A stretch of 64,000 nucleotides of DNA from Schmidtea polychroa. Its lineage: Eukaryota. Shown here piece after piece: positions 39,580 through 63,715 of this stretch; position 1 is the stretch's first letter; the number at the start of each line of letters is the position of its first letter. Location: positions 207,762,001 through 207,826,000 of the forward strand of contig CM097885.1 in NCBI GenBank assembly GCA_044892525.1, given 5' to 3'. Position numbers and translations under genes: made by a program. The notes under the pieces were generated by a model that saw nothing but the letters and a program-made list of their open reading frames with translations, had not been told where the DNA came from and ran no database searches.

Positions 39580-40947
39580 AGGCCTAGAAAAATGAGAAAT
39601 AGCAGTTAAGCTACAATGAGATAATATTTACAATTAATAGAGAAAGGGAATATTAAAGCTAGCTAGAAACAAATTGAATATAATTACGAAAATTTGAGTT
39701 TAGAGAGGAAATAAACGAGCTCGGGGAAAAGATAATAAAATTATAATGAAAAAGGAAGGAGAAGAAGAAAATGAATTAAAGAAATAATGAGAAAATAAAG
39801 AATAGGTGAAATGGAGATAATGAGTAGAAGAAGAAAGTAACTAGCTAATTAAAGGGATCCCAGTGAAGTAGAGAAACTCTACTGAATTTTTTTTTTGGGT
39901 AAACCGGGAAAATGTATTTTTATCGGTTCCAGAGTAGAACCGAGTGGGATAATAGTAAATATGAAAAGTAAAACAGCGACAACAGCGCAAAGGAATAAGA
40001 AAACGAAGGGGGGTAATAAGCAGAGACCGACAACGACCTATTTTTACTATAATTGATAACGAATAGATAATTATTACGACTTTATAGATAATTGTTACTA
40101 CCCCATATAGATAATTTAAAATCGACGGAAAATACGGGCTGATGGGAAATTATAACCCGCAGAAAGGATTTCACAAAAGATAGGGGAAGCACAAACAGAA
40201 ACCTAAAAGGTGTCTGTTTTTGAATGTTGTAGAAAGAATGATGAAGTCGTGTAAGCAAATGCAACACGAGATCATTTTTTCATTTTAGATATCAAGCCAA
40301 TCCAGTCAACCAAGACAATCCAGAACCTGCACAAAAGGAATTCGAAGAAATCGACAATCAACCAAGGATAAATCCATTCAGAACCCGCACCGAGAGACAC
40401 AGCAACCGGAAGACTCCAGAACGGAAGAAGATACAGATAGCGACATCTCCAACTTCGAACGAATCATCGATATATTCAACCTCATAGTATTAGCAGCCAT
40501 CTGCCAAGGATTAGTAAATCTCCTCAGGATCTCAGTAGCAGATTCATACAGAATATTTATCGAAGGAAACACAATCAGAACCGAACTCGTCCAATTCAAT
40601 AGCCGCTAATTACCAAGAAGCGTAAGAAAGGAATCACGGATAAACCCAATCTTAGATCTTCAAGTAAGCCAGGAGACGTATTATTTTCAGGAGACGAATT
40701 ACAACAACTCAAAAGAGGACGATCTATTAAACATCAAAGAGGAATATCACAAGGAGCAAGAAGAACCAATCAAGTACCCATATTTGACCAAGAAAATCTC
40801 GGATATACCCCTAGTCGATCTCGAAGTAGAGAAAGTCTGTCCGATATCACTAATAGTTTAGCAACGTCAACCGAGGAATTATCAGCCCAAAGTTTAGTCA
40901 CATCGTTAGACAATTTAAAAGAAACAGACGAACCTAGAACACCAATC

Positions 40948-43152
40948 ATGACGAATGTCGTAAAAACCGACGAGTATAAAGAGAAGTTCAGAGGAGAACC
41001 GTTCAATGGAAATGCAAACAAGTTAGCAACGTTCATAACTAATTTTGAAGTTTATATCACTGTGTGTGGATGGACATCCGAAGCAATTAGTAAAAGGATG
41101 CCGTTGTTTTTGTGCGATAGTGCATTAGAAGTATATTTAGAAGCTAAAGAGAGAGACACGAAATTAGAAAAGTGGGAAGATATTAAAACATTCCTGAAGA
41201 AAACCTTCGGAGCCAGTAAGCCAATCAACCAGGCGTTGGGCGAACTAGCAAATAGGAAACAAAGAGCAAACGAATCGATAACATTATATGCCAGTGAATT
41301 GCGGAGATTAGCGAAGAAAGCAATGAATGGAAAATTACCCGAAGAAAATCTGATCGGTTATTTCATAGAGGGATTACGCCGAGAAGAAGTAAGAGCCTCA
41401 GTAGGTTGTCAAATGTGCAAAACATTAGAGGAAGCCATAGATTGGGCTACAAGATGCGAGCTCCACCTCCCAGCTCAAATAAATATTATGCAAGAAGAGG
41501 GAAGGATAGCGACAGCAATAGCGAAAGCGGATAACGGAGATAACAACAATCAAGAACCGAAAATGAATCAATTTATACCAGGAGCGCATCAAATTTTCAA
41601 ACCACCACAAGGACGATCAAATGGGAATAATGGTAATCGTAACAACCTGAATAATGAGAACAATTTTAATAATCGACGAAATACGAACGATAACAAGCAG
41701 TGCCGAACATGCGGTAAACCAGGACACTGGGACAGAGATTGCTATAGAAATTCAAATTGTAATCGTTGCGGACGGCGTGGACATACCGAAAATGTATGCC
41801 AATTGAGAGGTTGTTTTAACTGTGGTCAGCCAGGTCACATCTCCAGAGATTGCCGAGAAAGGGGCCAACAACAACGACCACCACAGCGAAATAATAATTA
41901 TATGGCGAATCCGCAACGACAAAGCAACCCTAGCGAAGGAAAACAAATGAACGTTATGCAGGAAATCTCGCAGATGAAACAGATGATGCAACAAATGATG
42001 AGGCCAAGACAAGAATCAGCACCCCAACAAACCCAGAATATACGTATGATGAGGAGTACCGAAAATCCCAACAATTATGAAGTGCATCAACATGTACAAG
42101 AATGGCAAAGGCTACAGGCCGAGGAAGAGAGGATAAAACAAGAACGCAACCAACAACGACAAGAACAACCATTGCGAATAAATATGATGAAGTTAGTAAA
42201 AGACATGAAGAGCCAGTATTGCTACAATTACGGGAAAAACCCAAGGGTAGTACCCATGACTGAACCAGAAAAGGTAAAAGAAACAACCACGGAAATGAAA
42301 ACAGAGAATTCAACCACGATTTTAAAAGGAAACCAGAGAATTCAGAAAATATTCTGGAAAAAGATAAAAGATAAAATCGAAAAAGAACATAATAAAGCGA
42401 AAACCGAGACAGAAGATGAAAATAACAAGAGCAAGGAACAAACCAGTCAACTAAACCACCAAATGCTACAGGAATTAGAATCAGAAGAAACAACGATATT
42501 TGAAAGAAAGAAACTAAAGAGAGTACCAAGGATGAGAAATTTGCAAATCAATATGATGAAAAGGACAAAAGATGTAGCATCGTCAGACGAAGAAGAAGAC
42601 TATGTAAGTAGTTTGGGTGGAGAAATACTACAGCTAAATGAAATAAGCGAACCTCCAAAAGGGGAAATCAAAGAGGAAGAAAGCGAAAGCGAGATAACCA
42701 GTGGAAGTGAAGACGAGGATGTCGAAATAAAGTTGAGAAAAGCAGGGGAGGAAGCGATAAAACAGCTAGCCGAAATACTCCCAGTAGTAGTGAGGAACCA
42801 AGAGTTCATCGACGTAATTCCATTCAGGCGATTCGTGCAAAAAGTGATGAAATTGGAAAGAAACGAGAAAGATCTAATACCAAACGAGGAAAAATCAATT
42901 ATAAAAAAGTATATGGAAAAAATGAAGCAGGCCGATACCACGCGGTATGTAATAAAAATTGGAACGAGTAGAGGACTTGAAAGAATGTGGATAAAAAATA
43001 CAGTCACCGACGAACTTTTCGATTGGATACGAGAACATTTGGGAAGTTCGAGAAAGAAAGAATATCTGTATCAATACCAAGGTGAACAGATCAAACCAGA
43101 TATGCACTTAGTAGATGCACTGAAATGGCCAGGAAATACTGAAGTTGCATAA
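40948..43152 (+). CDS. gag: Element B Gag (capsid, three CCHC knuckles, Q-rich and acidic extension, C-terminal Ubl-like domain)
   Basis: FNGNANKLATFITNFE...RKQRANESITLYASELRRLA...FIEGL; CRTC..GHWDRDC, CNRC..GHTENVC, CFNC..GHISRDC. The frame is open upstream to ~40603. Confidence 0.95.
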   Translation: MTNVVKTDEYKEKFRGEPFNGNANKLATFITNFEVYITVCGWTSEAISKRMPLFLCDSALEVYLEAKERDTKLEKWEDIKTFLKKTFGASKPINQALGELANRKQRANESITLYASELRRLAKKAMNGKLPEENLIGYFIEGLRREEVRASVGCQMCKTLEEAIDWATRCELHLPAQINIMQEEGRIATAIAKADNGDNNNQEPKMNQFIPGAHQIFKPPQGRSNGNNGNRNNLNNENNFNNRRNTNDNKQCRTCGKPGHWDRDCYRNSNCNRCGRRGHTENVCQLRGCFNCGQPGHISRDCRERGQQQRPPQRNNNYMANPQRQSNPSEGKQMNVMQEISQMKQMMQQMMRPRQESAPQQTQNIRMMRSTENPNNYEVHQHVQEWQRLQAEEERIKQERNQQRQEQPLRINMMKLVKDMKSQYCYNYGKNPRVVPMTEPEKVKETTTEMKTENSTTILKGNQRIQKIFWKKIKDKIEKEHNKAKTETEDENNKSKEQTSQLNHQMLQELESEETTIFERKKLKRVPRMRNLQINMMKRTKDVASSDEEEDYVSSLGGEILQLNEISEPPKGEIKEEESESEITSGSEDEDVEIKLRKAGEEAIKQLAEILPVVVRNQEFIDVIPFRRFVQKVMKLERNEKDLIPNEEKSIIKKYMEKMKQADTTRYVIKIGTSRGLERMWIKNTVTDELFDWIREHLGSSRKKEYLYQYQGEQIKPDMHLVDALKWPGNTEVA

Positions 43153-46100
43153 AGAAAAACAACCAGCCAACCTTTACGATTGGGCTAAAGATGCCAAGGC
43201 AGAATATGATTTTAATATCAAATTGAAATTAGAACAAATAAAACAATGTACTCTGAGACGAAACCTGGATAAGCTGATCAAACAAATTCAAGAACAAGTA
43301 GAAGACAACTGGGATTTACTCATCACCAGACGAGCCCCAGCCATGTACGAACTAATGAGCCGGTTGCGAGATACAGAAATGCTCCGAATGAGTGATTGGA
43401 GAACCATAAATTTGATCCACAAATATGGAAGGTTAAAAGAAACCCAGCCACAGAGGTTGGAAATAACCATATGGTTACCGAACGAAGAGAAACGACGAAT
43501 AAAAATGAGCAATCAGAGTACAGTAGATGACTTGGTATCAAAAATAAACCAAGAGATAACGGAAAAGGTACGTAGCGAAAGTAGTGATGGTATGGTGGAT
43601 GATGTAGTCATGATGTACGATAAAATAATATTACGAGCGGAGGACGACACCTCGTTAAGCGAAATGGGTATGTGGGACAATCATCAGATAATCAGGATAG
43701 TACCAATGGATGAATTCCGAACAAGAGATGTAACCTATCAAAAAGAAATACGAGACCGGATGAAAACGTTATATCAAAAATCTACAGAAATAATTGAAAT
43801 CCACCAACAATGGTTAAAAGAAAAAGAGCTACAAGGAAAAATCACGAAATTAAATACCAGATCCTGCAGACGAACCCCATGGGAAAGAGTGTGGAATGCA
43901 GAAAATAAGGAATGGGAAATCCGGAAAGGGATCTTCGTAGAAACAGACATTGGTGAGACAGAAAGTGAATCGGAGGAAGAAGAAGAGGAATTTCCAGAAT
44001 ATGAAGAGGAAGCAAGGGAACAGACATCAGATGACGAAGGCGAGACGGATGTCACATCAGAAAGCGAAAATGAAGCGAGACATATTCATGCAATGAGGAA
44101 AAAGGAACGTGAATATGCTGATATGGACGGCGAGGAAGCAATAGAAGCAAGAGAGCGAGAAGAGAAAGAAAGATATAAACAATTAGGCGATATTTTAGCA
44201 ATGGGAGCGAAAAATCAAAAACGCCAGGTAGTAGCGTTGGCTAATATCATCTTAAAAACATCAGAGAATATCCACAATCTGAGAGGAATGGCAAAGGCAA
44301 TAGAGGAATACCGGCAATATAATGAATGGTATCCAGAACAGCTAGAACAAATTATTCGAAAATGGAGAAATCAGGAATGGGCACAAGACACTCAGGAGAG
44401 GTATCACATCCGAATCAAGTATCCGGACAAGAGCATCGAGGAACTAGAGGTACATCCAACAACAAAAATTAGAGAATTAAAAAAGAAATTAGCATATGAA
44501 ACTCCATTCCATCTGCAACTATTCGGAAAATCACTAGACGATAATGCAGACGTCGGGATAACACCCATGAGATTGGAAGAGACAAATGTATTAACAATGG
44601 CAGAAACGTTGGGGAAACCGTTAAAAAGGAAAAGTAAAATTACTAAACCAACAAAAGGCAGTTTGAGTACTCCAAGTCCGAACAAAGCACCAAGTAAATC
44701 TAATGAAACTGAAGAAGTTGAAGAGATCATCCTGGAAGATAGTGACGATGAACCAGGAGAAAGATCACCGCTATTAGTGAGATGGCCGACAGGAGCCGAA
44801 ATGTGGACTAATAACCAGCCATCAACGAGTTATCAACAACCAACGAAACTGAACATCAAAGAAATCATCGACAATACTACGGAAACCGAAACGGATGAAC
44901 AATTCCAGAAGCAAAGAGAACCAACGAAAGTAACACCAGAAGGTCAAACCGATAAAATAATAGACGAATGGAATGAGTGGCTAAGAAATAGCGATAGCTC
45001 ATTACCCAGAACGGATAACGAAAGAAACCCGAATTACGAAAATACCAGAGAAGCCGGAACGATGATGGAAAAACGGGCAAAAGGAAGACCTAAGAAACAA
45101 GGAGAAAAATCTGAGTTCAAAACCAAAGAACAATTAAAGCAAGAACAAGGGCAAGTTCGATTAGAAAAATTGGATAAAATAGTATGGGATCTAAAGGAAG
45201 CCCAACCAACGACCGAAAGAGGAGAAAAATGGATACGAGAATTGATCAAAGATATGTTAATAATAACAAACCCACAACTTAGACGTTCGTGGCAACGGAA
45301 AGTAGCCAGCACGGAAGCTAGACAATTATGGCACACCATTTCGGGGATAATCCCAAAGTTAATCAAAGAGAAAACGAAAACCACCAAAACGGATTGGGAC
45401 GAAACAAAGAGAGTGATTGAGCAGCTCACGACAAATGCAAATGATGACGAACATCATCTAGTGGTAATCACGTATTTGATGTATAATTTGATGGGACTAG
45501 CTGCGAGGAAAATACCAAATAAACAGTTTGCAAATCATGTGGAAATGACCGTTTCGATCATAGAGAATACTATTGAACCACATATTATTCGTGCAGGAGG
45601 ATGGAAAAGACTGATACAAGCGCCACGAAAAAATGAGCAAGAAAGGTCGATGCAAGTTAGATTGAAAAAACTGTTAAATGAACTAGAATGGGAACTACCG
45701 ATGAAAGATCTCGCAAGCAGAAAAGCATCAATAAATTCGTTAATGATGACTATGATGATATGGATGTTGTGCACCAGTGGAGCAACGGGTTTTACCATCT
45801 ACGATTGTGATAATATGATAATGAGAGATAAATACTCATTGAGAAACATAGAAGAATGCAGACAAGCCTCACCCAACAAATTGGACATCGTGAGAACAAA
45901 AGTTACTTACCATGTATATCAAGAATCAGATTTCATCAGAACGCAAGCAAGGGAATGCGTAGTATCAAAAAAGGTACTCGCATATTACTGTGGACAATAT
46001 TCGTATTCGACTCTTATACTACCCGGTCTGGATAAAGAAATCGTATCAATACAACGAGAGGACTGTAAAGAGCTATTTAGAACCGGAGCGCTAAAAATGC

Positions 46101-47152
46101 ATAACGGAGTGACGATTCACGGACAAACTGGAATGATTAAAACCGAAAGTGTTTACGTATCCGGAAAAGTAAAATCATCAGATGGGTCATGTAACGGAGG
46201 TACGTATACAATCCGAGGCGAGGTAATATCAGGAGTAGTAGTGATCGAGTCTTATACGGTTGAATTAAAAGAATACGAAGCGCAATTTGACGCAAATAAT
46301 TATCAGACGAAGACCAACCCAGCGTGTAAAGCTACAGAAAACGTATGCAGGACAGGAGTATCAACTATAATCTATGATGCTAATACCCAAAAATGCCGAC
46401 TCCAACTGTTAAAAAGTGCTTTGTTCAATGAAGTAAAAGGAGAAATTTACGAGAACGAGAACGACGAGGATGGAAACGACAGAGTGAGAATGCGAAATGG
46501 AAAACCGATGCCACCATCTCCCAGAGAAAAGAGACTTTCAACGCAGAAGACACCAACAGCATTAATCACAGACGATCCAGATCTAGGTATGAGATTTATC
46601 AAAGAGAAAGAAACCACCAAATGTGACAGTATAGTATATAAAACCAATTACGCAGGTATCTACATGTCGAGACAAATAATCGATAGAGCAGTGGGAAAGA
46701 TAGCAACGGAGGACGTAAAACTATACTTATATGCAAATAATAAAATGGATTTTCTATTTCATCGTGGACAAACGACCTTGCAAAAAGTATATTACGATCT
46801 GATACAAAACGATTGTTCATTGAATAAAGAAATATTGAAAACAAAGCTAGCTATTGCGATAACGCACCCCGATAACACGATGCCATCACTCCCACTACCA
46901 GACGGACATTTTGGTAGAATGGTAGGAGAAGTGATGTACACATACCAGTGTACCAAGACGTATGCACGAATGCCGGAAAAATCCATACTACCCGAAAAGA
47001 GATGTGCAAATGAATTAGAAATTCGTTATAAAGGACAAAATCGATTCGTCCAACCAGTCACTAGAATTATGAATCCAGTGGGTTTCTACCCAAATCTCTT
47101 TAACTGTTCTAATGCATACGGACCTTTGTATGAAAGACCCGATGGGAAATGA
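43145..47152 (+). CDS. Element B polyprotein segment: 2x Ubl, AT-hook, Bcl-2-like domain, signal peptide, class III-type glycoprotein ectodomain
   Basis: YHIRIKYPDKSIEELEVHPTTKIRELKKKL...LFGKSLDD (Ubl); KGRPKK; IEPHIIRAGGWKRL (BH2-like); GFTIYDCDN...YYCG...DGSCNGG...GEVMYTYQC...FVQPVTRI. +1 frame relative to gag; no ATG start. Confidence 0.88.
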   Translation: MHKEKQPANLYDWAKDAKAEYDFNIKLKLEQIKQCTLRRNLDKLIKQIQEQVEDNWDLLITRRAPAMYELMSRLRDTEMLRMSDWRTINLIHKYGRLKETQPQRLEITIWLPNEEKRRIKMSNQSTVDDLVSKINQEITEKVRSESSDGMVDDVVMMYDKIILRAEDDTSLSEMGMWDNHQIIRIVPMDEFRTRDVTYQKEIRDRMKTLYQKSTEIIEIHQQWLKEKELQGKITKLNTRSCRRTPWERVWNAENKEWEIRKGIFVETDIGETESESEEEEEEFPEYEEEAREQTSDDEGETDVTSESENEARHIHAMRKKEREYADMDGEEAIEAREREEKERYKQLGDILAMGAKNQKRQVVALANIILKTSENIHNLRGMAKAIEEYRQYNEWYPEQLEQIIRKWRNQEWAQDTQERYHIRIKYPDKSIEELEVHPTTKIRELKKKLAYETPFHLQLFGKSLDDNADVGITPMRLEETNVLTMAETLGKPLKRKSKITKPTKGSLSTPSPNKAPSKSNETEEVEEIILEDSDDEPGERSPLLVRWPTGAEMWTNNQPSTSYQQPTKLNIKEIIDNTTETETDEQFQKQREPTKVTPEGQTDKIIDEWNEWLRNSDSSLPRTDNERNPNYENTREAGTMMEKRAKGRPKKQGEKSEFKTKEQLKQEQGQVRLEKLDKIVWDLKEAQPTTERGEKWIRELIKDMLIITNPQLRRSWQRKVASTEARQLWHTISGIIPKLIKEKTKTTKTDWDETKRVIEQLTTNANDDEHHLVVITYLMYNLMGLAARKIPNKQFANHVEMTVSIIENTIEPHIIRAGGWKRLIQAPRKNEQERSMQVRLKKLLNELEWELPMKDLASRKASINSLMMTMMIWMLCTSGATGFTIYDCDNMIMRDKYSLRNIEECRQASPNKLDIVRTKVTYHVYQESDFIRTQARECVVSKKVLAYYCGQYSYSTLILPGLDKEIVSIQREDCKELFRTGALKMHNGVTIHGQTGMIKTESVYVSGKVKSSDGSCNGGTYTIRGEVISGVVVIESYTVELKEYEAQFDANNYQTKTNPACKATENVCRTGVSTIIYDANTQKCRLQLLKSALFNEVKGEIYENENDEDGNDRVRMRNGKPMPPSPREKRLSTQKTPTALITDDPDLGMRFIKEKETTKCDSIVYKTNYAGIYMSRQIIDRAVGKIATEDVKLYLYANNKMDFLFHRGQTTLQKVYYDLIQNDCSLNKEILKTKLAIAITHPDNTMPSLPLPDGHFGRMVGEVMYTYQCTKTYARMPEKSILPEKRCANELEIRYKGQNRFVQPVTRIMNPVGFYPNLFNCSNAYGPLYERPDGK

Positions 47153-48436
47153 TGATGTTACCGGGAAAAACCATATCCGAGGAACCCAAGAAATTTGGAT
47201 TAATAGAACTCGCCACAGAGCTGGATTTCAAACCTATAGACGTGTCAAACGGTGGTATGTATTCCCCAGAAGATCTAGAAACAGCACGACTTAACGTACT
47301 CTTCCCAGCCAGACGAGAATCCATTTTGTCTAATATGGTAACAATAACTGGGGGCACAAACTATCAATCAGGCCCGAATTACGAGCTGCTATTATCGCCA
47401 GACCATTTTCAACAAGCTACGTCAAACATGATGAAAGCAATGTGGGGAAGATTCTTAGTTTTTGGACAAATGATGGCCGGGATATTAGGGATCATACTCA
47501 TAATTCAGATAGTTAGAGTAATACTAACACAAATGTTAGCTTGTTTCGACATATACAAGCGGGAAAAGAAAGTTAACTGGAAAATGATAGTAGGTTTCTT
47601 ACCATTTTTAGCTAAAACCATGGTATTACATGGTCACTCAAAAGACATTCATCGGATAAAGCGATTGATTAAAATATTGACAAAGATTAAAGGAACCGAC
47701 GAAGAAGTAGGCAGACGATTCCGGAAAGTAATGTACGATGAAGCAACAAGACGACAATTGAAAAAGAATAAGCCAAAATTCTTGGACCGATTTAGAAGCC
47801 AATCATCTAACAGCGATAGTGACGACGATGATAACGGGAACGATAAATGTCTTTATCCAAACAGAAACCCAAACGAAAAACCAATGGAAACGGCACCATA
47901 TTGGGAAAAGGAAAAGACAAACACCTGGATCGCCAATGGAAGCTATATACCACCGGATATCGTGGGACCACAAGCAGCTTTGACCATGACACAAAATATG
48001 TATCCGCAATTACCGAGTCAACCCGGTATGCATTATATGCCGACACGACGTACCAAAAGTGTAGATCAAGCAGATGACGTGAGAACAATCGCAGCGATGA
48101 GTCTACCTGGAGGTCCAGCAGTAACAGTCATGATCCAAATCAATGGTAAAGAAACCAATGCTATGATAGACACAGGAGCTAATGTATCAGCGATATCGAT
48201 TAATCAAATCCCCAGTAAACACTGGAAAGATATCGAATCAACAACAATTCACATCATGTAGTAAAGAAACAGTGGACGTGGTCGGAAGATGGTGGACTAC
48301 ATTGAGATACCAGGACAACGAAATTGAAACGTATTTGGCAGTAATACCAAAACTTAGCGTACCATGCATAATCGGAACGGACCTGATGCCAGAATTATTA
48401 AAAGAAGTCGTAATAGACTTAACATTGTTAAGTTAA
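47149..48436 (+). pseudogene. Element B polyprotein segment: glycoprotein TM anchor, cytoplasmic linker, aspartic protease (frameshifted)
   Basis: TM FGQMMAGILGIILIIQIVRVIL; AMIDTGA (48169). The C-terminal half of the protease (CIIGTDLM) lies in the +1 frame 48255-48436. Confidence 0.88.
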
Positions 48437-51400
48437 CAACTATGTGTTTAAAAGACAAAACCGGTAGAATATGCAAAATGAATGCAGTAATCAGATGTCC
48501 AGAAAAAATAATAGTACCAGCAAAATCACAGATGATTTGTCAGATAAAAGTGGATACGGGTATGGAAGGAGAAGTTATCTTTGAACCAAGCAAGTCATTC
48601 GAAAAGCGACGAGAGTTACCACTCGCAAGGGAAATAATAACAATAAACCAAGAAAAAGTGATACCGCTCAACATCACGAATTTCGAAGAAGAAGACAAAA
48701 TCATCTATGAGAATGAAAAATTGGGAAGATTGACCCCAATGATGGACATAGAATTACCGAAAGTGACCAACGAGATGATCAAAGATGATGAATTATGGAC
48801 AATAGATAGTATGTTGTTGACGAATGATGAAAAGAAAAAATTGCACCGATTGTTGGTGGAATATAAAGATATATTCGCCATCTCAGATTTAGATTTGGGT
48901 ACATGCGATGTTACCCTACATGCAATACCCCTCATAGATGAAACTCCAATTGCATTAAGACCATACAAGCTAGCAGAAATGCAAAAAGAAATAGCCGAAG
49001 CAGAAGTACAAAAGATGCTAGACGCAAAAGTAATCGAACCGAGTTGCTCACCTTGGCAATTCCCAGTGGTCATGGTGAAAAAGAAAGATGGCACCCAACG
49101 ATTCTGTATCGATTATCGGAAGTTAAACGCAGTAACCAAGAGAGATACCTATCCATTGCCGGACATCAATGAGATGTTATTGATGTTGCAAGGGGCAGCA
49201 TATTTTACTTCTTTAGATCTAAAAAGTGGATACTGGCAGATTAAAGTCAAAGATGAGGACAAAGAGAAAACAGCTTTCACGTTGGGACGAGATCTATATC
49301 AATTCAGGAAAATGCCATTCGGACTGACCAACGCACCAGCATCATTTCAACGGTGTATGAACTTTGTCACTCATGGAATCAAACAATGTATGGTATATAT
49401 TGATGATTTACTAATCTATTCAGCGACATTTGAACAACATCTGGAAGATATCCGAAACGTATTTATTAGATTAAGACAGTGGAAACTCAAACTCAAACCA
49501 TCAAAATGCGATTGGGCAAAGGAAAAAGTCACGTTTTTGGGACACATAGTGTCAGCTAAAGGAAAGGAGCCAGATCCAAGAAACATCGAGAAAATAAAAA
49601 CATGTCCAGCACCGAAAACGGTCACCCAAGTTCAGGAATTTCTAGGATTATGCGGATACTATCGCAAATTTATCAAAAATTATGCAGGAATTGCAAAACC
49701 AATCCAGGAATTAGTAAAGAAGGACATTTCGTTCATTTGGGGGAAGGAACAACAAGAGGCGTTTGAAACGCTGAGAGACAAACTAATCGAAGCACCTATC
49801 CTCGTACACCCAGATTTTAAGAAGCCATTTCTATTGGCAACGGATGCAAGCGGGTACGCGGCAGGCGCGATTCTGGGACAATTAGACGAAGAAGGAAAAG
49901 AAAGAGTGATTGGATACTACAGCAGAACGTTTAAAAAGCACGAGAAAAACTATTCCGTAACCGAGAGAGAAGCGTTAGCAATTATACAAGCGATTAAACA
50001 TTTTCGATATTTGTTGTGGGGACACGAAATATGTATCACAACAGATCATCAACCACTAGTATGGCTTGGTCAACACAAAGAAGCTTCAAGTAGATTGATG
50101 CGATGGGCAATGCAGTTACAAGAATATTCACCGTTCATAAAATTCAAAGCGGGAAGAGCGAATGCCAATGCGGATTGTATGTCCAGATTTATCTTTCCAG
50201 ATTTAGTAGATCACGAAATGCAACGAATATGTCTGATGGTAGCAGAAGATTTAGATTTTTGCCAATTACGGAAAGACCAACAAGAGGATACAGAGTTGAA
50301 GCAAATCATTGAGTATGTGAAAACAGGGAAAGCAGAGGTATATGAGAAAGATCAAAAATTGAAGGAGCATATGGATAAACATCGACATCGATATATTATC
50401 GAGAAAGACTGGTTGTTGATAATGGATGGAGAAAAAAGACTGATGTGCATTCCCGAGAATAGACGTAAAGAGCTGCTAACACAATACCATGACGGAAGAC
50501 TCGGAGGACATATGTCGTCTAAAAAGACGTTGGCAAGAATGAAACAGAAATATTTTTGGCCTACGTTAATCGAAGACGTAACCGAATGGGTAAAAAATTG
50601 TCTAACTTGTGCGACCAGGAAAAATACTGGATCGAAATGGAAAGCACCTTTAACGCCAATGCCAGTACCAATAGAACCAATGACAATGATATCCATGGAC
50701 GTAGTTGGTCCACTACCAGAGTCAGATAAAGGAAATATTTACATTTTGGTGATCACAGACTTTCTTACGAAATTTCCAGAAGCATTCGCGATGCCAGACC
50801 AAAAAGCTAAAACAATCGCAAAAATTTTGGTAGAAGAGATATGCTGCCGATATGGAACACCAAAACAGATATTAACCGATCAGGGAACTAATTTTATGAG
50901 TGAAATAATGAGCGAAGTAACAAATTACTTCAAAATAGCAAAGCTAAGAACATCTCCATACCACCCTCAAACCAATGGGATGACGGAAAGATTTAATGGA
51001 ACACTTATACAAATGTTATCAAACTACGTCGATCGTCACCAACGAGATTGGGACGAATATATAAACCTATGTCTTATGGCATACAGAATGTCAATTCATG
51101 CATCAACGAAAATGAGCCCATTTAAATTAATGTACGGAAGAGAGTGCAACATGCCAATGGACCTGGAATACCAACCACCGATATCGCAGTATATGGAGAT
51201 CGACGATTATGTTACGAAATTCAAGGAAAGAATGCAAGAAATTTGGGAAACTGCGGGATTAAATATCAAGTTCTACCAGGAAAGTTATAAAGATTTACAC
51301 GATCGAAAGAAAAACGTGAAGCAACATACGTTTCAAACAGGTGATTGGGTAATGATAGAAACCCCGGAATTAATTCCAGGAACCACAAAAAAGTTACAAC

Positions 51401-54400
51401 GCAACGGAAAAGGACCATATGAGATTCTATTTGTAGGCGAAACCAATGTAAGAGTGAAATTGATAAATAATCCATTCACCAGGCCAATATACGTGAACGT
51501 GGCACGATGTAAATCAATTCCAAAAACCGCCACCAGTCAACCAGAAGGTCGAACATTAACCACACGTTCGCAAACATACAGAATGAATATGATGCAACAA
51601 CTCGCAGAACCTATCACTGGACGATTGGGCATACAACCATCGGAAGCGGAAAAAATCGTACGAGAGGTAAAGATAAAATTACCCGGATGGGCAAAAGATC
51701 GATTAGATTTCGAAATTTTAGGAGGATTATTGACGATGATCGAAAATTATGCGAACAGAGAGAGGACACATCCGTTATTGCGAGTAGTCAAAAGCCAATG
51801 GCCAATATTATTTACAATAACAGATCATTACGGAGACACACCATTACACAAACTCATGAAAGTAGGTAACAACGAGCAAATACTAGAAACAATAGAAGCA
51901 TTTCACGACTGCAAGCGATCAACAGAACAAACAAACAACCAAGGTTACACACCATTAATGATAGCAGCAAACAGAGGAAAAACCAAAGACATTATAACCG
52001 CATTACTTGATACTGGATCAAAAATAACTACACAAGACCACGAGCGGAAAAATGCACTACATCATGCTATCGAAGGGAAAAGTACCGAGGCGTTCACGTC
52101 ATTGATGGAACTACTATCATATGAGGACAATCGGGAAGTCGGAAACATGTATGATGGATTGTTGACAGCGATCAAAGAAAAACTGACGACAATTACCGGA
52201 ATATTAATTACCTGGAGAAATCCAATTCAAAACGATTATATGATCAACGTAAACGAAGCGTTCACGAGAGGAGAGAACACGCTGATGAGAGAAGCTATGA
52301 AAGGACATCAGTTATTCGAAATCCCAAATCAATTGTTAGAACGAGGAATAAAATTCACAAATCACAAAGATGAACAGTTAGCAAAAAAGCGAATCGACAC
52401 ATTCGAAAAATCAATATTCCAATTTACTAACCAAGTACGAAATAAATATTGGGAAACGGTAAGTGTGTTATATATGATGGACACAATGAATAACATCCGC
52501 GAGAATTACCTGGATATTATCCAAATACTTACAGCAGAGGAACGAATCAATAATCCAAACGGAAAGAAAACGAAAATAAGGTATGAGAAATCCAGGGAAT
52601 CAAAGTCAACAACGAACCATACGGTCACAAACAACGTCATCAAAACCAAATCAATGAGTATAGGTCAAGAGGCAATAATACGCAAAGCAAAAGAAGTTTT
52701 CTTTGAGGAAATGCTAGAGTTGTCAGACGAAATAATATTGTCAAAAATAATAAAAGCAGTACATACATACGCAAGAGATCAAACCACGGGATTAGATATC
52801 GGGAAAATCAAAACCTTCTTGCCTCGAGCATTTACGATGGTAACGAAGGATTCCAGAACACCCCTACAACAAGCAATACTAGCAGCGAAAGAAAATAGAG
52901 CAATAACGATCATGAGAATCCTTGGAGATATGGGCGAGGAAACCAACACGAAAAATGAACAAGGCGAAACCGCCATGATGTATGCAGCTATAACGAAAAT
53001 ACACCCAAAAACACTCCACATACTACATCAATCGGGATCGAGACTAGACGAAAGGTCCAATGAAGGAAATTCCACCTTGGACTGGGCAACCATACAGCCA
53101 AACTTAGAAATGATCAGATTCATTTGCAAAAATGCGACAAAAGAAGAAGTTGAAAATATATGCAAAAACACATCTCAATTTCAGTGGAATACGGTACGGA
53201 AAAATCTGGAAGCAATGAAATTATTAGTAACATGGAGAATACCACAAAGTAATAAATATGCGATAAATATAAACGAATTCTACGAAAACGGAGAAAACGC
53301 GATGGTAAAGAATACATTAACTAAAGGGGGGACACCAAAAATTATTTTAATAGTACTAAACAGAGAAGACCTCAAATTCACGCAAAATCAGAGCGAGCAA
53401 CAAAGAATTGGGAAACATCGTCGCATTCAATTAAGAGAATTAGTCAAAGAATGGAATAGAAAGAGACACGCTGCAACGGGCAGAAAAGAGTTTGAATTCG
53501 AAGCAAAATTAGCAAGAAACAGAGTGCTAACAGCATATCGCAGATTATTGAACGATATAAATGTCGAGGACGACATTTTAAATGACAGTGGGGGAGATAA
53601 ACACGATGACAATAACGGAAAAGGCCGAAAGGAGGATAAAGAAAAAAGAGAACCGGAGGAGGATAAACCGGAAAACAAGGATTCGGATACGAAAAGAGAG
53701 GGAAACAGCCCGGGAACTAAGACCAAAGAGGAGGAAAAACCGAATAATGGAAAACAGAGGGTATGCCTACCTTTCACTAACAAAGAAATAGAGACAAATA
53801 TGATATTAATGATAATTATGCTTACCATGATAGAGTTAGTAACAGCTCATGGAGGGACGAGAACGATAAAAGAAACCAAAGAAGCGGAGAATCAAGATAG
53901 CAAAGAGGACGAACTAAAACAAGAAAAGAAAAAGCAAGCACAAGAGCAGCAGTGGGATTTAAAGGAAGAATGGGACTTAAAGGAAAGGTGCATACTAGGA
54001 AGATGCATGTCTAGAGCGTATCAGAAACTAGTACTGATAAATGAGGACACAGAACCAATAACAGAAGTAAGAATACAAGAAGCATACCGAAATCGAGACG
54101 GGAAAAGAATAACGAACGTTAAAGGAAAAGAGGTACACCTAGGAAAAGGTGGTGAAGTAGTAATAACGCAGCTCCAACCAAGAAAAGAGCACAAAGTCTG
54201 TATTTCAAGATTAGGACCGGGTGAGAGATGCCATCAATATGTGACGCAGCAGCAGCCCCCGAAGGAATATACGGTTTGTATCTGGAGGAACGAATCAAAA
54301 AGAGAATGCCGACGATACCCGGGGAAAAGAGGAAAGAAAAGGAAAAACCACGACGAAAAGGACGAAGGAGGAAAGCACAAGAAAACTGGCGAGGAAGCTC

Positions 54401-54801
54401 AGGACAACTATGTTTCGGAGGAAGAGATGGAAAAAATACAAAAGATGGCAAAGGAGGGTATGAACGAGGAAATAGCAAGAATACGAGAGATGATGAAAGG
54501 GAATGGCAAAAGAGGGAACGAGAAAAGTACAGAAGCAATATCAACATTAACAAACAAGGAAAAACCAGAGAGTATAAGCGTGAAGCAGATGATGTGGATC
54601 AGTGGGATAATAATAACAGGGGCATTCCTAATCATAACGGGGGGAACAATAAAAATAATTAAAGATAAACGACATCGCGGAGAACTAGAAATGACCCGAA
54701 TCAGAAACTTCCAACATCGAGTGAAACGACCAAGTGATATCAAACAAGAACAGTGGGTGGAGGCCTGGAACGTTCAGCGCCCTCCAAACTCACGTATATA
54801 G
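48364..54801 (+). CDS. pol: Element B Pol with extensions: RT, RNase H, integrase, two ankyrin modules, signal, FN3-like domain, TM
   Basis: RFCIDYRKLN, MPFGL, YIDD (49396); ATDAS...EALA...TDH...NAD; HDG..GGH/C..C, MDVVG, TDQG, ERFN; GDTPLH, GYTPLMIAA, GETAMMYAA; ITQLQPRKEHKVC; TM WISGIIITGAFLIITGG. True coding in this frame begins at ~48433. Confidence 0.95.
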   Translation: MHNRNGPDARIIKRSRNRLNIVKLTTMCLKDKTGRICKMNAVIRCPEKIIVPAKSQMICQIKVDTGMEGEVIFEPSKSFEKRRELPLAREIITINQEKVIPLNITNFEEEDKIIYENEKLGRLTPMMDIELPKVTNEMIKDDELWTIDSMLLTNDEKKKLHRLLVEYKDIFAISDLDLGTCDVTLHAIPLIDETPIALRPYKLAEMQKEIAEAEVQKMLDAKVIEPSCSPWQFPVVMVKKKDGTQRFCIDYRKLNAVTKRDTYPLPDINEMLLMLQGAAYFTSLDLKSGYWQIKVKDEDKEKTAFTLGRDLYQFRKMPFGLTNAPASFQRCMNFVTHGIKQCMVYIDDLLIYSATFEQHLEDIRNVFIRLRQWKLKLKPSKCDWAKEKVTFLGHIVSAKGKEPDPRNIEKIKTCPAPKTVTQVQEFLGLCGYYRKFIKNYAGIAKPIQELVKKDISFIWGKEQQEAFETLRDKLIEAPILVHPDFKKPFLLATDASGYAAGAILGQLDEEGKERVIGYYSRTFKKHEKNYSVTEREALAIIQAIKHFRYLLWGHEICITTDHQPLVWLGQHKEASSRLMRWAMQLQEYSPFIKFKAGRANANADCMSRFIFPDLVDHEMQRICLMVAEDLDFCQLRKDQQEDTELKQIIEYVKTGKAEVYEKDQKLKEHMDKHRHRYIIEKDWLLIMDGEKRLMCIPENRRKELLTQYHDGRLGGHMSSKKTLARMKQKYFWPTLIEDVTEWVKNCLTCATRKNTGSKWKAPLTPMPVPIEPMTMISMDVVGPLPESDKGNIYILVITDFLTKFPEAFAMPDQKAKTIAKILVEEICCRYGTPKQILTDQGTNFMSEIMSEVTNYFKIAKLRTSPYHPQTNGMTERFNGTLIQMLSNYVDRHQRDWDEYINLCLMAYRMSIHASTKMSPFKLMYGRECNMPMDLEYQPPISQYMEIDDYVTKFKERMQEIWETAGLNIKFYQESYKDLHDRKKNVKQHTFQTGDWVMIETPELIPGTTKKLQRNGKGPYEILFVGETNVRVKLINNPFTRPIYVNVARCKSIPKTATSQPEGRTLTTRSQTYRMNMMQQLAEPITGRLGIQPSEAEKIVREVKIKLPGWAKDRLDFEILGGLLTMIENYANRERTHPLLRVVKSQWPILFTITDHYGDTPLHKLMKVGNNEQILETIEAFHDCKRSTEQTNNQGYTPLMIAANRGKTKDIITALLDTGSKITTQDHERKNALHHAIEGKSTEAFTSLMELLSYEDNREVGNMYDGLLTAIKEKLTTITGILITWRNPIQNDYMINVNEAFTRGENTLMREAMKGHQLFEIPNQLLERGIKFTNHKDEQLAKKRIDTFEKSIFQFTNQVRNKYWETVSVLYMMDTMNNIRENYLDIIQILTAEERINNPNGKKTKIRYEKSRESKSTTNHTVTNNVIKTKSMSIGQEAIIRKAKEVFFEEMLELSDEIILSKIIKAVHTYARDQTTGLDIGKIKTFLPRAFTMVTKDSRTPLQQAILAAKENRAITIMRILGDMGEETNTKNEQGETAMMYAAITKIHPKTLHILHQSGSRLDERSNEGNSTLDWATIQPNLEMIRFICKNATKEEVENICKNTSQFQWNTVRKNLEAMKLLVTWRIPQSNKYAININEFYENGENAMVKNTLTKGGTPKIILIVLNREDLKFTQNQSEQQRIGKHRRIQLRELVKEWNRKRHAATGRKEFEFEAKLARNRVLTAYRRLLNDINVEDDILNDSGGDKHDDNNGKGRKEDKEKREPEEDKPENKDSDTKREGNSPGTKTKEEEKPNNGKQRVCLPFTNKEIETNMILMIIMLTMIELVTAHGGTRTIKETKEAENQDSKEDELKQEKKKQAQEQQWDLKEEWDLKERCILGRCMSRAYQKLVLINEDTEPITEVRIQEAYRNRDGKRITNVKGKEVHLGKGGEVVITQLQPRKEHKVCISRLGPGERCHQYVTQQQPPKEYTVCIWRNESKRECRRYPGKRGKKRKNHDEKDEGGKHKKTGEEAQDNYVSEEEMEKIQKMAKEGMNEEIARIREMMKGNGKRGNEKSTEAISTLTNKEKPESISVKQMMWISGIIITGAFLIITGGTIKIIKDKRHRGELEMTRIRNFQHRVKRPSDIKQEQWVEAWNVQRPPNSRI

Positions 54802-55406: not shown

Positions 55407-56795
55407 ATGGATAAACGACAAAGAGAAGAGTTCAGAGAGATTGTCGAGCAAATCCGAAAATCTACAACGATCAGAATACACAAACATGTTATGTGCGGAA
55501 TATGTGAAAAGTTACTAAAAGAACCCCACCAAACCCTATGTGGATGCAGAGTATGTAAGGAATGTATCAGTGAAGCAATAAAGAATAGACCACAGTGGTG
55601 CCCGGTGTGCAAAGAGACACTAATATCGAGTTTAGAAGACACTAACGAGGATAAAGCCGCCGTGAAAGACATGTTAAACACCAACCTGGGATGCAAAAAT
55701 GCCCCATGCGAATGGAAAGGAGTAATATGGAAGGTAGTGCAACATATGGGGGAATGTATGTATAGAATCGGCCAGTGTGAAAGGTGCCATAAAACCATTC
55801 GAGCAAGCGAAGAAAAAGAGCATCATAGCCAGTGTGAAGAGAGACTAGAAAGATGTGAACATTGTGGAGAAATAGATACGTGGAAAAATCTCACCATCAA
55901 ACATCACAATGTCCAAGAAGAAAAGGTATGTGCAGAGTTCAGTGGGGAATGCCCGAACGGATGCGAGGAAGGGAGAATAATAAAAATAGCCCAACACTTA
56001 AAAGAATGTGAGAAGAAAAGGATGATATGTGTACTAGGTAAATGGGGCTGTCAGAAACTATTACACCGAGGAGAGTTACCACATCATTTAGTAGAAAATG
56101 CTTCAACCCACGCAGAAATGTGGTCGACTGCGTTACAAGAAAGCGATGAGAAAGTAAAACAAATGGAGATGGAGATAACATCGTTGAAAGTGTTAGTCAA
56201 AGAACTACTAGAAGAAAGGGAAGCGTTCGAAGAAGCCCGAGCAAACATAAAGATGCAAATGAACCGAATAGAAATCAGTAATAATCAGGCCAAGGAGCTA
56301 CACCAGAAAATACGGGAAATAAATCTAAATGAAGTAATACCAACAGCACCCTACATATGGAAAATAACGGAAGTAAAAGAAAGAATACGAAAAGCAAAAA
56401 CCGGAGAAGAGACAAGAATAACAAGTCCTGCATTCCATTCTTGGAAAAATGGGTACAAGATGAAAATAAGGATATATCCCAACGGAGATGGAACCGGATT
56501 GAATACACATTTTTCGATATTTTTTCTATTATGTAAAGGGGAATATGACGAAATAATAGAATGGCCATTCCAGGCAAAAATCGATATCACAATGATGAAT
56601 GACCAAAGCGTCCACGAACAAAGCTTTAAAACGACGGGAACCCAGCTGTGTTACCGGCGACCTATTGATGAGGAAGGAGCAGCATCGGGAGCGCCTACAT
56701 TCATCTTGCAGCAAAAGATGGAAGAGATGACGAGAAATGACACAATATATATAAAAATGACAGTACGAAGGGAAGGAAAGGGTAGAACGGAGTAA
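55407..56795 (+). CDS. traf: Full-length intronless TRAF-like protein (RING, TRAF zinc fingers, coiled coil, MATH/TRAF-C)
   Basis: RING CGIC...PHQTLCGCRVCKEC...CPVC; C..GC.W.G...HMGEC fingers; MATH YIWKI...SPAF...GYKMKIRIYPNGDGTG..THFSIFFLLCKGEYD..IEWPF. Confidence 0.96.
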   Translation: MDKRQREEFREIVEQIRKSTTIRIHKHVMCGICEKLLKEPHQTLCGCRVCKECISEAIKNRPQWCPVCKETLISSLEDTNEDKAAVKDMLNTNLGCKNAPCEWKGVIWKVVQHMGECMYRIGQCERCHKTIRASEEKEHHSQCEERLERCEHCGEIDTWKNLTIKHHNVQEEKVCAEFSGECPNGCEEGRIIKIAQHLKECEKKRMICVLGKWGCQKLLHRGELPHHLVENASTHAEMWSTALQESDEKVKQMEMEITSLKVLVKELLEEREAFEEARANIKMQMNRIEISNNQAKELHQKIREINLNEVIPTAPYIWKITEVKERIRKAKTGEETRITSPAFHSWKNGYKMKIRIYPNGDGTGLNTHFSIFFLLCKGEYDEIIEWPFQAKIDITMMNDQSVHEQSFKTTGTQLCYRRPIDEEGAASGAPTFILQQKMEEMTRNDTIYIKMTVRREGKGRTE

Positions 56796-59854: not shown

Positions 59855-62800
59855 TGTTGGGCTGAGCCGAAAGATAGCTGGGAAATCAGGTTAAATTTAA
59901 CTAAAGAAAAATAAAAAATAAAATAAATAGATCGAGGAATAAAATAGAATAGAACATAAGAAAAGTAATAATTAGAAAATAAGAATTAAAACAAAAAACA
60001 TAAAAATAAGAACAATTAAATAGGACAATAGAATGACGAAAAATAACGTAAAAGGTAGTAGATAATAAGGAAATTAAGGAAAATAAATAAAAACATAATT
60101 TTAATAAAGAAAATAAGAAGAAATAACCCAAAAACAAGGAAAATAAATTAAATGAATAAAATAAGGCGGTACTCAATTCTGATTGGTCCGCATAAACAAA
60201 AAATACCTATATAAGTAAGCAGCAAATTCACTATAATCAATGTTAAAATCAAACCAATTATAGGTACCCGACAATCAGGAAAACCAAACCATACTCAGAC
60301 AACTATTAGGGACAGTTTTATAGACTACTCATTCATATAACCGATTGGATCAGTTTATATTTCGGCTCAGCCTTTGGAACTACAGAATTTTTCAAATAAT
60401 AAAGTAAGGATGTATTGCTATTATGAAATTTGTTTTTGAAGGATTTAAATATTTCTATTATATTAACCTAACTTTTGAATAAAAACTTCTCCATTCGGTT
60501 TCGATCTTTTAACGATTTTATGGTTCATAAATTAATTTACAGGTCAATGATATATAAATATTTATGTTATGTTTTGTCATCAAACGTATTGATTATGCTA
60601 AAATTATTTGTTTTGAGAAACGTGGAGTTGAGGAGACCCACGCCATGGTATGAGGAGCCTTCGGGAGCTCAGCCGGCGGGTGTGGATCTCTTCAATCACG
60701 CAGCTGACGTGGGCCGGAATGTGGGGGCTTCCTCACGGGTCCGTCGCTGAGGGAAATAAAATGCTGCAAGCACGAGTTTAAAGTGTAGAGGAATATATTC
60801 CAATATTGAAAAGTAGAGCAAATCTGAATTGAAAATGACTGAGGTGGCTACAAACTCTTCCAAGTATGAGAATCTCATTTTCTTAGGTACTATACTTTGA
60901 AATTTTCGTCTAACATCATGAATTAGTCTCGATCGACTATTCACTTCCATGATACTCTATCATCTTGCGATAAATCCCCTTTTCGTCAAAATTCATGTCA
61001 ATTTTCATCTTAACTGATAGAACCCAAGAGCTAATACATTCACTCTGATGTTATGCAGTAGTATAGGAAGTATATATGGAAGATCACTGAACGCTTTTAT
61101 TTACTAAAAAGATATTTGGAGGAGTACGTTATTGTTTTTATCAAAAGCGCCTTAACTCTTTCTGAAATCCCCAATAGCCGTAATCTGAAGTCCGTTCAGT
61201 AAAAGACCCTCTGGCCTCATAACACAGTAAACATACAAGGAGAATTTACAAAAGTATTTAATTAAAAAGATAAAATTTCGTAAAAAATTCTTTATTTTCA
61301 TTAAAAAAAAAATATAATTCTGAGTTACCAGTAGTAGGAGCATAATAATCATTTCGGGAAGTTACCCCTGATAGATGTCGCTAAGATGAGGAAGGGCTTG
61401 AGCGAGTTGATAAAATCTCCACCGGACAGGATATTCTGATGTAAAGCGAGAGAGGCAGTATAATAAAAAATTTTTTCCAAATTTTCGTGTTTGCTGAGAA
61501 CTAAACAGTAGATTCATATCGGAGCTGAATGATTAAATTCCAAAAATCGATGTAATCCAAGTTCGGCAGTATAGATAAAATATGAACATGTACAGTGAGA
61601 AGGTATAGTCTGTCTGTAAGTATGCAGTGAATGAGATTGAGCAATCACCTGCAGGTAGAATCACATGTACAATAGCGAACAATTGCATATGGCTTAGTCG
61701 ATGTGATACTCATGCTGCCGGTACGGTAGCAGTGAATTCACAATTTAATCATCGATAATGAGAAAGTCGAATCCCATTGCACACACATGGTGAACACCAA
61801 CTTTTCTGAGAGATCTGAACACTAAGCCAGTTAACGAGGAGGCATGCAACAGATGGTTTGCATCATACGTGTCATACAACTAGAATAGAAATTAGACTAG
61901 TCTAACTTATCAGCAGTGTGATTGATCAAACAGAGCAAAGTCCATTTGACTGTAAAGTTTTTGTAATCGCACGCATTTACAATTAACTCAAATTAGAGTA
62001 TTATAATCACGAATAAACTCAAATCTTTTAATTAATTTATTATCCCGATGTATTGCACCTGTCTGAATTGTTTTGCTGATAGTAAAGTCGAATCTGGTCA
62101 CGCTCATGTATTGACAAGTTTTCTTAATCCGCAATAAAATTATCATGTTGGGCAAAAAGGGGGGGGAGAATTAATTTGTTAACCCGTAAACCTATAATTA
62201 CTTTACGGATGTAATATCAATCAACAGGAAGTTTCGCTAACAGTCATTCCGTTTTCTTCTTGTCGGTCATTTCAACCCATGAATGTAATGTAGGGAATTT
62301 ATGAGCCTTAATAAATAATTACGCTACTCTGATGGATTAGTAGAGCTAGCCAATTTTCGTCTTATCTCTATTATTCTTTCTTCATTATAGCTATCAAAAG
62401 ATGTTGCCAAGCACGAAATCGCCCATCAAACCCTGCTTCTCCTGCTCGGACAAAAATACCGTAATCCGAGAATTACAGGCCCAGATCGGTCGATATAAAA
62501 AGAAGATCGACGATCTGGAAGGTACATGGTTTAGCCCAGTACAAATGAAGGAAGTTCAAAAGAAATTGTACCGCAGTGAGCATTGTCGCGATGCTTTGAT
62601 AAGCGAAAGTAGAGCTCAGCGTAGCCTAATCAAAGAGCAGTCCGAAGCTCTACATAAAGTTTACGTTCAAGCCGCTACAACCCGAAGGATTGTTAGTATT
62701 CCGATTAAAGAAGCGGACAATGTCTTCCCCGTTCACCATGAACCTTCAGTTAGTTCGCCACCCTTGTCGAAAAGATCTTGTCAGGAATGTGTGGAGGCCG

Positions 62801-63715
62801 ACCTCTCCCCCAGGCCATCGGACGTACCTACTACCGGCACTGGCAAGGTATTGCATTCAGCCACGACGTCCTCGGCAATCTTGTCTGCCAACCCCTCAAA
62901 ACCTAAGCGCCGCCAATTGTCCAGAGCGGAGCGTAAGAAGCGCCAACGTGAACGAGCAATGGTCAAACAACGAGAACTATCTGCCAACCACCTAAGTGCT
63001 TCGAATGATCCACCCGTAACGATCGATCTGACCGTAGGAATCCCAGGGCGAATCATATCTGCCGCTGGTGTGACTTGGGAGGAGAATGCCTCCGAGTTTT
63101 TTGATCTAGATGAGCTATTGGCGGATGCGGGGTGGGAGAAGTGATGGCCGCAACACAATGCAACCGTGCAGGGTGCGAATGGACAAATATACTATCTTGA
63201 CTCTTTTTCTTCTTAATCTATTCTCCACCAAGTGTACTTGTTATGTAGTGTATAATTATTTAATGTATCATGATAATAAAATAAAGAAATATTTGGTTAA
63301 ATTTTTGTTGTTGTTTAAATCTAACTAGCTGTGATAAAGGTTCAGCGTAGTGTTCGCAAAGCGAGAGTAAAGTTTGAGTTCGAGAGGCAGTGGTCAATTT
63401 TGTACCGAATAATGGGTCAGGGTAGAGGGAGAATCTGATGAGGTAAACAGACGTAAGTCCTTCCATCGGCCGTCAGAAAAGGGAAGTCGAGGCCTCAGTA
63501 AGGAGTAGTCCTAAGGTAGGGGCTCACCTGCTTACTGGAGTCTCGCCGACATAGCACATTTCCAACGTGAAGCAATTCGCGGGTGCTATGTTGGAGGGCA
63601 AGTTGTGCGGGGTCCTGCTCCGGGTTGACACGGGCGTATGTAGCGTAATGATATGGGCACGCACCCCTAGACAAGGACGTAGATTGAGCAGAGTCAACCA
63701 AGCACTACCCCAGCA
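59855..63715 (+). repeat. Element B 3' LTR (3,861 bp)
   Basis: TGTTGGGCTG...CCCCAGCA followed by TSD CCTC; all internal ORF translations match the 5' LTR apart from one substitution. Confidence 0.97.
62401..63144 (+). CDS. Second copy of the LTR-encoded 247-aa protein
   Basis: Translation identical to 36417-37160. Confidence 0.75.
   Translation: MLPSTKSPIKPCFSCSDKNTVIRELQAQIGRYKKKIDDLEGTWFSPVQMKEVQKKLYRSEHCRDALISESRAQRSLIKEQSEALHKVYVQAATTRRIVSIPIKEADNVFPVHHEPSVSSPPLSKRSCQECVEADLSPRPSDVPTTGTGKVLHSATTSSAILSANPSKPKRRQLSRAERKKRQRERAMVKQRELSANHLSASNDPPVTIDLTVGIPGRIISAAGVTWEENASEFFDLDELLADAGWEK

Follow-up and report, generated by a model that had tools for sequence, protein, structure and literature searches.

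The window analysed here is a 64,000-nucleotide stretch of Schmidtea polychroa contig CM097885.1 (assembly GCA_044892525.1, positions 207,762,001 to 207,826,000), which contains a 29,846-bp LTR element at 33870-63715 with an internal region of 22.1 kb and a target duplication of CCTC (Table 1). The element is a giant, env-carrying Ty3/gypsy retrotransposon of gag-env-pol order and is Burro-like. Its LTRs are identical at 3,859 of 3,861 aligned bases, with two base differences and one gap, and its flanks have a GC content of 21-33%. Each LTR carries an intact 247-aa ORF (36417-37160 and 62401-63144) for which Pfam gives no match. The primer-binding site is tRNA-Pro-like. No purine-rich tract was found directly 5' of the 3' LTR (59825-59854), and plus-strand priming of the element may be non-canonical.

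Table 1. Features of the ankyrin-bearing element and of its smaller relative, element A, in coordinates of the window.
Feature	Position	Strand	Basis or remark
5' LTR, 3,862 bp, TG...CA	33870..37731	+	contains 247-aa ORF; 4-bp CCTC flanks the element
Primer-binding site, 7 nt past the 5' LTR	37739..37756	+	sequence
Accessory ORF with C-terminal RING finger	38012..38497	+	Pfam zf-C3HC4_3, E 6.4e-11
74-nt tandem array in the leader	39040..39650	+	nearly perfect copies
Gag: capsid domain, CCHC knuckles, long low-complexity tail	40948..43152	+	Retrotrans_gag E 3.3e-10, zf-CCHC E 1.1e-9
Gag-pol intervening region, two frames in this copy	43124..48261	+	Pfam
Pol core: RT, RNase H, integrase (H2C2, core, GPY/F-type C-terminal part)	48364..51582	+	RVT_1, RT_RNaseH, Integrase_H2C2, rve
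Putative element-protease site MNMMQ at the integrase/ankyrin junction	51583..51597	+	profile rank; predicted
Ankyrin unit 1	51616..52398	+	helical N-cap followed by three clear repeats (51820-52131) and two degenerate helix pairs of repeat-like form ("related block")
Ankyrin unit 2, paralogue of unit 1	52645..53430	+	three repeats (52840-53151), then closing block
Charged low-complexity linker	53431..53787	+	31 K/R and 28 D/E in pol aa 1685-1808
Internal signal-peptide-like hydrophobic stretch, candidate anchor	53788..53859	+	hydropathy scan; pol aa 1809-1832
Cys-containing putative ectodomain, TM helix 54580-54663 (aa 2073-2100), short basic tail	53860..54801	+	hydropathy
TRAF-like accessory gene: RING, Cys/His-rich region, coiled-coil-like stretch, MATH	55407..56795	+	TRAF-mep_MATH E 3.3e-26, zf-C3HC4 E 6.7e-4
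Three more accessory ORFs: two coiled-coil-like, one with TM helix	56990..59626	+	ORF, Pfam, hydropathy
3' LTR	59855..63715	+	comparison of the LTR pair
Element A, smaller gag-env-pol relative	21087-30600		integrase about 50% identical to that of the ankyrin-bearing element

The region between gag and the pol core encodes, in order, a weak ubiquitin-like stretch (E 0.055), a possible Bcl-2-like stretch, a signal-like stretch, a mononegavirus-type fusion glycoprotein with a transmembrane segment (Monjiviricetes_fusion, E 1.9e-45 and 2.7e-19) and the start of the protease (RVP, E 1.2e-7). The Bcl-2 domain was confirmed neither by Pfam nor by a PDB sequence search. Helical stretches of both elements (45200-45800 and 23400-23900) carry BH1/BH2-like words and are followed by the signal-like stretch of env; a Bcl-2-like domain at this place would thereby have a natural anchor at its tail. 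Upstream of these genes, no BIR domain was detected in the RING ORF, and the 74-nt array between this ORF and gag has an internal 40-nt sub-period. Downstream of pol, the last accessory ORF (58967-59626) encodes a predicted single-pass membrane protein without a recognised family. TRAF/MATH transcripts are described as greatly expanded in S. mediterranea (text of PMC6109357), and part of that expansion could be element-borne.

Element A occupies the preceding part of the window, and no LTR pair was found for it. Its integrase is followed by a signal-like stretch and a domain without a recognised family. Other sequences in the window lie apart from both elements: a protein-primed type B DNA polymerase fragment at 18384-19944 (Pfam DNA_pol_B_2, E 1.1e-9) that is probably left over from a Polinton; a Tigger/pogo-like DDE_1 transposase at 8914-10515; a truncated third gypsy pol at 1-1991; and, on the minus strand at 14842-15687, an ORF with weak protease likeness. 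The runs of N at 14322-14461 and 17800-18096 are both outside the ankyrin-bearing element.

Pol of the larger element does not end with integrase. A single stop-free ORF (48364-54801, 2,145 aa) encodes RT, RNase H and integrase, behind which the two ankyrin clusters follow in the same frame. Unit 1 contains GDTPLH (51832), GYTPLMIAA (51943) and KNALHHA (52048) with LITWRNP (52204) in its closing block, and unit 2 contains RTPLQQA (52855), GETAMMYAA (52963) and GNSTLDWA (53065) with LVTWRIP (53224); RMNMM stands at 51580. The initial annotation had described exactly this arrangement, two ankyrin clusters with related closing blocks downstream of integrase, and all six motifs and both blocks were recovered at their places. 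Each unit singly exceeds the curated Pfam Ank_2 cut-off of 27.3 bits, with 61.3 bits (E 1.4e-16) for unit 1 and 35.6 bits (E 1.4e-8) for unit 2. Repeats of ~33 aa with helix-turn-helix form and TPLH-type motifs are thus recognised by Pfam in both units and by a model and fold searches in unit 1, in agreement with the ankyrin fold first proposed. A 33-aa ankyrin profile gave per-window p values of 0.006-0.011 on repeats 4-5, not significant region-wide, and repeats 1-2 of unit 2 also fell below the region-wide 95% line.

The two units are paralogous. Aligned with each other, they share 59 of 245 residues (24%) with 3 gaps (E 3e-18), and their Smith-Waterman score is 175, with none of 500 shuffles exceeding 66. 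Compared by itself, the closing block reaches 104 between the units (shuffle maximum 69); the N-terminal block alone scores 37, which is not significant (shuffle maximum 46). Globally, ~270 aa align nearly without gaps at 23-24% identity, and the repeat registers are kept. The step from repeat 1 to repeat 2 is 37 aa in both units, a spacing seen in 12 of 1,184 cases among fetched ankyrin proteins. IkB-alpha also has a 37-aa step at this place. Since the blocks flanking the repeats had no match at E<=0.01 among 269 fetched ankyrin proteins, the likeness between the units exceeds that of generic ankyrins. No similarity between them is left at the DNA level, and the duplication is therefore old. 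These results support an anciently duplicated ankyrin domain inside the polyprotein. The tandem duplication suggested in the initial annotation therefore stands (E 3e-18), but its unit of ~350-400 aa does not, as the period is 340 aa (1,020 nt), of which ~270 aa are alignable. Neither unit has a counterpart in element A, as the initial annotation had noted.

Relatives of the whole module were sought in several collections. Protein searches yielded no relative that shares the flanks of the module, and the best 120 of 666 and the best 150 of 17,289 matches were generic ankyrins only; none of 1,326 candidates was a relative of the inter-cluster region, none of 402 long candidates was a relative of the module at E<=1e-20, and no viral contig was found carrying one. 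In a cluster atlas, unit 1 fell among generic ankyrin clusters. Leads from the same atlas to replication initiators for the inter-cluster region were all sub-0.9 and were rejected, and NCBIfam matches to bacterial Ank effectors lay far under their own cut-offs and reflected generic repeats.

The present copy is disrupted upstream of pol: breaks lie in the gag-env interval, inside env and near the protease. The element belongs to a many-copy family, as contigs of four public runs show, and three of these junctions vary in length among the copies. Of the 12 indel rows listed out of 30, 0 fall in 51600-53500; copies ~82% identical are gap-free at 52855-53239, and a piece of ~82% identity under a second organism label is gap-free at 53275-53498. 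A further piece, covering 52189-52545, aligns with 6 gap letters, and parts of the ankyrin module are skipped by a few contig joints of low depth. One bin over unit 1 is without cover in the run of the second organism, which is uninformative. Frameshifts in most copies, a possibility that the initial annotation had raised against the module, were not seen in these contigs, which give no copy counts.

A model of unit 1 was built on 23 generic ankyrin rows, as a single-sequence model reached only pLDDT 35.8. Its overall pLDDT is 70.6, with values of 88-97 across most of the three clear repeats. The closing block was modelled as two extra helix pairs, five pairs in all, at pLDDT 50-78, where the generic ankyrin rows bias it toward the ankyrin fold; on this model, the block probably represents degenerate ankyrin repeats 4-5 and not a separate domain. 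In a structure alignment against 48,161 representative chains, the best match was IkB-alpha (1nfi; Z 17.6, rmsd 3.0, 181 aligned residues, 18% identity), with model positions 78-270 on chain positions 70-270 and repeat 1 in register, followed by IkB-beta (1oy3, Z 16.5) and Notch-1 (Z 16.4). A second structure alignment concurs in placing IkB-alpha first, with IkB-beta tied with a DARPin at 16.5. The lead of IkB-alpha is 1.2 Z over Notch and 1.2 over the DARPin, about 1 Z unit, a narrow margin. An IkB-like inhibitor would have a stack of five to seven repeats, and repeats 4-5 of the model are at low confidence. Foldseek ranked KANK2 first and Bcl-3 ninth at near-equal E-values.

Among viral models (BFVD), unit 1 matched best to part of the polyprotein of planarian secretory cell nidovirus (PSCNV) at E 2.4e-6, where the second-best model reached 6.4e-5; the fold match is loose, with an rmsd of 10.3 and 19% identity. 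Poxvirus ANK proteins matched at E about 1e-4, and polydnavirus vankyrins ranked 11th, 23rd and 29th. In sequence searches of PDB with the units, ankyrins, DARPins and TRP channels came first among the best matches listed; IkB-alpha and IkB-beta were absent there, and Bcl-3 was the sole family member (E 0.025). The DSGxxS degron, an N-terminal feature of cellular IkB, was not found in the module. Viral IkB mimics are not known to carry this degron.

Integrase of the larger element aligns with that of element A as far as pol aa 1050. A cleavage profile trained on 7 sites outside pol, so that pol served as a held-out test, ranked MNMMQ first of 2,138 pol windows at 10.5 bits, and the next window reached 6.0. 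Further instances of the motif, written [IM]x[MIVA]M, stand in gag and upstream of the protease besides the one where integrase ends. A stricter pattern, [IM][NRH][MIVA]M, picked post hoc from inspection, has 8 matches in the 4,601 aa of the main ORFs of the element (shuffle mean 0.6), one of which (48247) sits inside the protease and not at a border. The same profile left the RNase H/integrase border outside the top 15 and gave 12.2 to a control window in element A, which uses a different border motif of its own at 6 sites and has 1 match to the MNMMQ-type pattern. Cleavage at RMNMM, as asked in the initial annotation, is thereby favoured by the profile, and the ankyrin module is likely to be cut off integrase at MNMMQ. 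The scan of pol windows revealed no comparable site between or behind the ankyrin units.

Behind unit 2, the charged linker leads into the hydrophobic stretch and the putative ectodomain, for which no significant Pfam, NCBIfam or PDB match was obtained. Should the hydrophobic stretch function as an internal signal, both ankyrin units would remain anchored on the cytosolic face of a membrane. In element A, integrase is followed by a short spacer and then a similar hydrophobic stretch, and because the two are so joined there, the module looks inserted between them in the larger element. Two further readings of the pol tail were unsupported, namely a fibronectin-III domain and homology between the tails of the two elements (score 41, shuffle maximum 58).

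Taken together, the module is read here, at somewhat better than even confidence, as a protease-released and probably membrane-anchored twin ankyrin accessory protein directed against host immune or cell-death signalling. A domain of ~270 aa, composed of a helical cap, three clear repeats and about two degenerate ones, would have been duplicated within the polyprotein long ago, and the pair would be co-translated with pol. The aspartic protease of the element may then free the module from integrase, leaving both units joined and held at the cytosolic side of the membrane by the signal-like stretch. There the pair could serve as a protein-binding decoy or scaffold beside the TRAF and RING gene products of the element, by analogy with accessory ankyrin proteins of viruses. 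As its target, the most specific candidate would be a planarian Rel-homology (NF-kB-like) factor, which would be kept out of the nucleus. The reading frame, the duplication, the ankyrin fold of unit 1 and the anatomy of the element are established by the analysis, and the cleavage, the topology, the target and a capture of the domain from the host are inferred.

The initial annotation had named IkB mimicry by polydnavirus and poxvirus ankyrin proteins, and for the module such mimicry is suggestive on the model. The structural ranking and the top viral match to PSCNV point toward it; the sequence affinities, the narrow margin and the divergence of the Rel-homology genes of S. mediterranea, for which the text of PMC13563047 gives seven divergent RHD genes and no clear NF-kB, point away from it. 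Several parts of the NF-kB pathway are also described as missing in parasitic flatworms (text of PMC4894443). A bolder scenario is tentative and on balance doubtful: the retroelement and PSCNV may each have captured an inhibitory ankyrin domain of a host RHD-ANK protein, which the retroelement doubled into a membrane-tethered, degron-less twin IkB decoy freed from integrase.

Other explanations have to be weighed against the accessory-protein reading. In chromoviruses, chromodomains occupy the position behind integrase. Uncut ankyrin units could in the same way read a chromatin mark or factor for integrase, as the initial annotation had alternatively proposed, and the in-frame fusion directly behind integrase, the putative status of the cleavage and the histone-reading ankyrins BARD1, EHMT1, TONSL and SLF1 among the structural matches of unit 1 are consistent with this. 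These chromatin readers, however, rank below IkB at Z 13.6-14.8, the integrase of element A stops at the same place without ankyrin, and a cleavage-type motif lies exactly at the junction. Cleavage with membrane anchoring is favoured because of the rank of MNMMQ and the signal-like stretch after unit 2, and targeting is disfavoured because an uncut integrase would continue into that stretch and the TM helix and would be membrane-tied too; a targeting role is accordingly rated as quite unlikely. About as improbable is a scaffold for particle assembly without an immune role, in which the anchored ankyrin protein would tie capsids or the envelope protein to the budding membrane. The predicted anchor and the presence of env and a second membrane protein in the same polyprotein would suit such a scaffold, but element A has the same gag-env-pol layout and post-integrase signal-like stretch without the module, and the main text on gag-env-pol elements of Nematoda, Bryozoa and Platyhelminthes (PMC13524379) makes no mention of ankyrin.

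Poxvirus ANK/PRANC proteins bring targets to a host cullin ligase. The units could likewise act as substrate adaptors that bring a host target to a host cullin E3 or to the element's own TRAF/RING proteins, and the RING-bearing TRAF, the second RING gene, the weak ubiquitin-like stretch and the poxvirus ANK proteins among the viral fold matches fit this idea, as do the ubiquitin and apoptosis themes stressed for Burro cargo in the text of PMC6431247. PRANC, F-box and SOCS box were nevertheless not found in the module (Pfam at E up to 5, simple motif patterns), which argues against the poxvirus-type E3 recruitment named in the initial annotation, and an adaptor role is considered unlikely. That the module is only a passenger, taken from a host and now functionless, would agree with the failure of protein collections to yield a relative with the same flanks. 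The open frame, the divergence of the units to 23-24% identity with almost no indels and registers kept, the gap-free ~82% identical copies, one under a second organism label, and the ankyrin repeats reported in Burro-1 to -4 (text of PMC6431247) all speak against a passenger, which is regarded as very improbable.

Should the accessory protein bind a Rel domain, it would point to an immune pathway that, according to the text of PMC13563047, planarian work has not pinned down, and would support Burro elements as virus-like agents with counter-defence genes. The more specific IkB decoy, if true, would place an IkB mimic inside an LTR retrotransposon, and the same planarian antiviral Rel pathway would then be indicated by two parasites independently. 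If Rel-domain binding is false, the module remains an expected Burro feature.

Among known systems, the IkB family (IkB-alpha, IkB-beta) and the vankyrins share with unit 1 a similar stack length and repeat 1 in register; the module differs in its identity of 18%, the absence of DSGxxS, its two tandem units and a probable membrane anchor. Poxvirus ANK/PRANC proteins with their F-box-like domain are also viral-type ankyrin proteins, from which the module differs in lacking PRANC, F-box and SOCS box. The ANK domain of PSCNV is described in the text of PMC6211748 as three divergent repeats closest to planarian RHD-ANK (Rel-domain) proteins. That paper proposes IkB mimicry for this ANK domain and predicts that processing leaves it in a single product together with a TM domain. 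Ankyrin repeats in a viral polyprotein, a product predicted to be shared with a TM domain and probably the same host group are thus common to both, whereas PSCNV is an RNA nidovirus with a single ankyrin domain and predicted host-protease processing, and the likeness consists of a loose fold match and that description. The GAG-ENV-POL errantiviruses of PMC13524379 agree with the element in gene order and in their class of fusion protein, but are far smaller and without its cargo, and neither TRAF nor Burro occurs in the main text of that paper.

The closest system is Burro/GYPSM1, the giant planarian gypsy elements (Jurka 2007; Grohme 2018; reviewed in PMC6431247), compared here by description, not by sequence. 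As far as the text of the review goes, Burro elements exceed 30 kb, with long LTRs and an internal region of up to 25 kb, and carry ankyrin repeats and MATH/TRAF, BIR, BCL2-like and ubiquitin-like (Ubi2/SUMO-like) motifs; their single polyprotein measures about 4,900-5,100 aa and has env placed between gag and pol. Burro RNA is reported to rise in smedwi-2(RNAi) animals (PMC8532177). The element in the window, at 29,846 bp slightly below '>30 kb', agrees with them in a size of ~30 kb, multi-kb LTRs, CCHC gag, RT-RH-IN, ankyrin, MATH/TRAF, tandem repeats, multi-copy state and a mononegavirus-like env between gag and protease. This copy reads in several frames of about 4,600 aa in total, other copies having different lengths at three of the junctions; it gave no BIR or Bcl-2 match (Pfam, PDB sequence search) and a ubiquitin-like stretch at E 0.055. 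The element differs in that TRAF is a full gene downstream of pol; the MATH domain of Burro1 is described inside the polyprotein, and that of a D. tigrina element in an upstream ORF. A literature search, with subscription papers, Repbase entries and figures outside its scope, met no description of an ankyrin module in a retrotransposon that is duplicated or IkB-like, nor of the candidate cleavage site, the anchor or the IkB/PSCNV likeness. The number and position of the ankyrin clusters of Burro-1 to -4 may already be drawn in a figure of PMC6431247, in Jurka 2007 or in Grohme 2018. Ankyrin cargo of Burro elements is already published, a kinship that the initial annotation had missed, and the module is a variant of it; that cargo has hitherto been a list of motifs without a mechanism, and the duplication, the candidate site and the candidate anchor now define one expressible and testable product.
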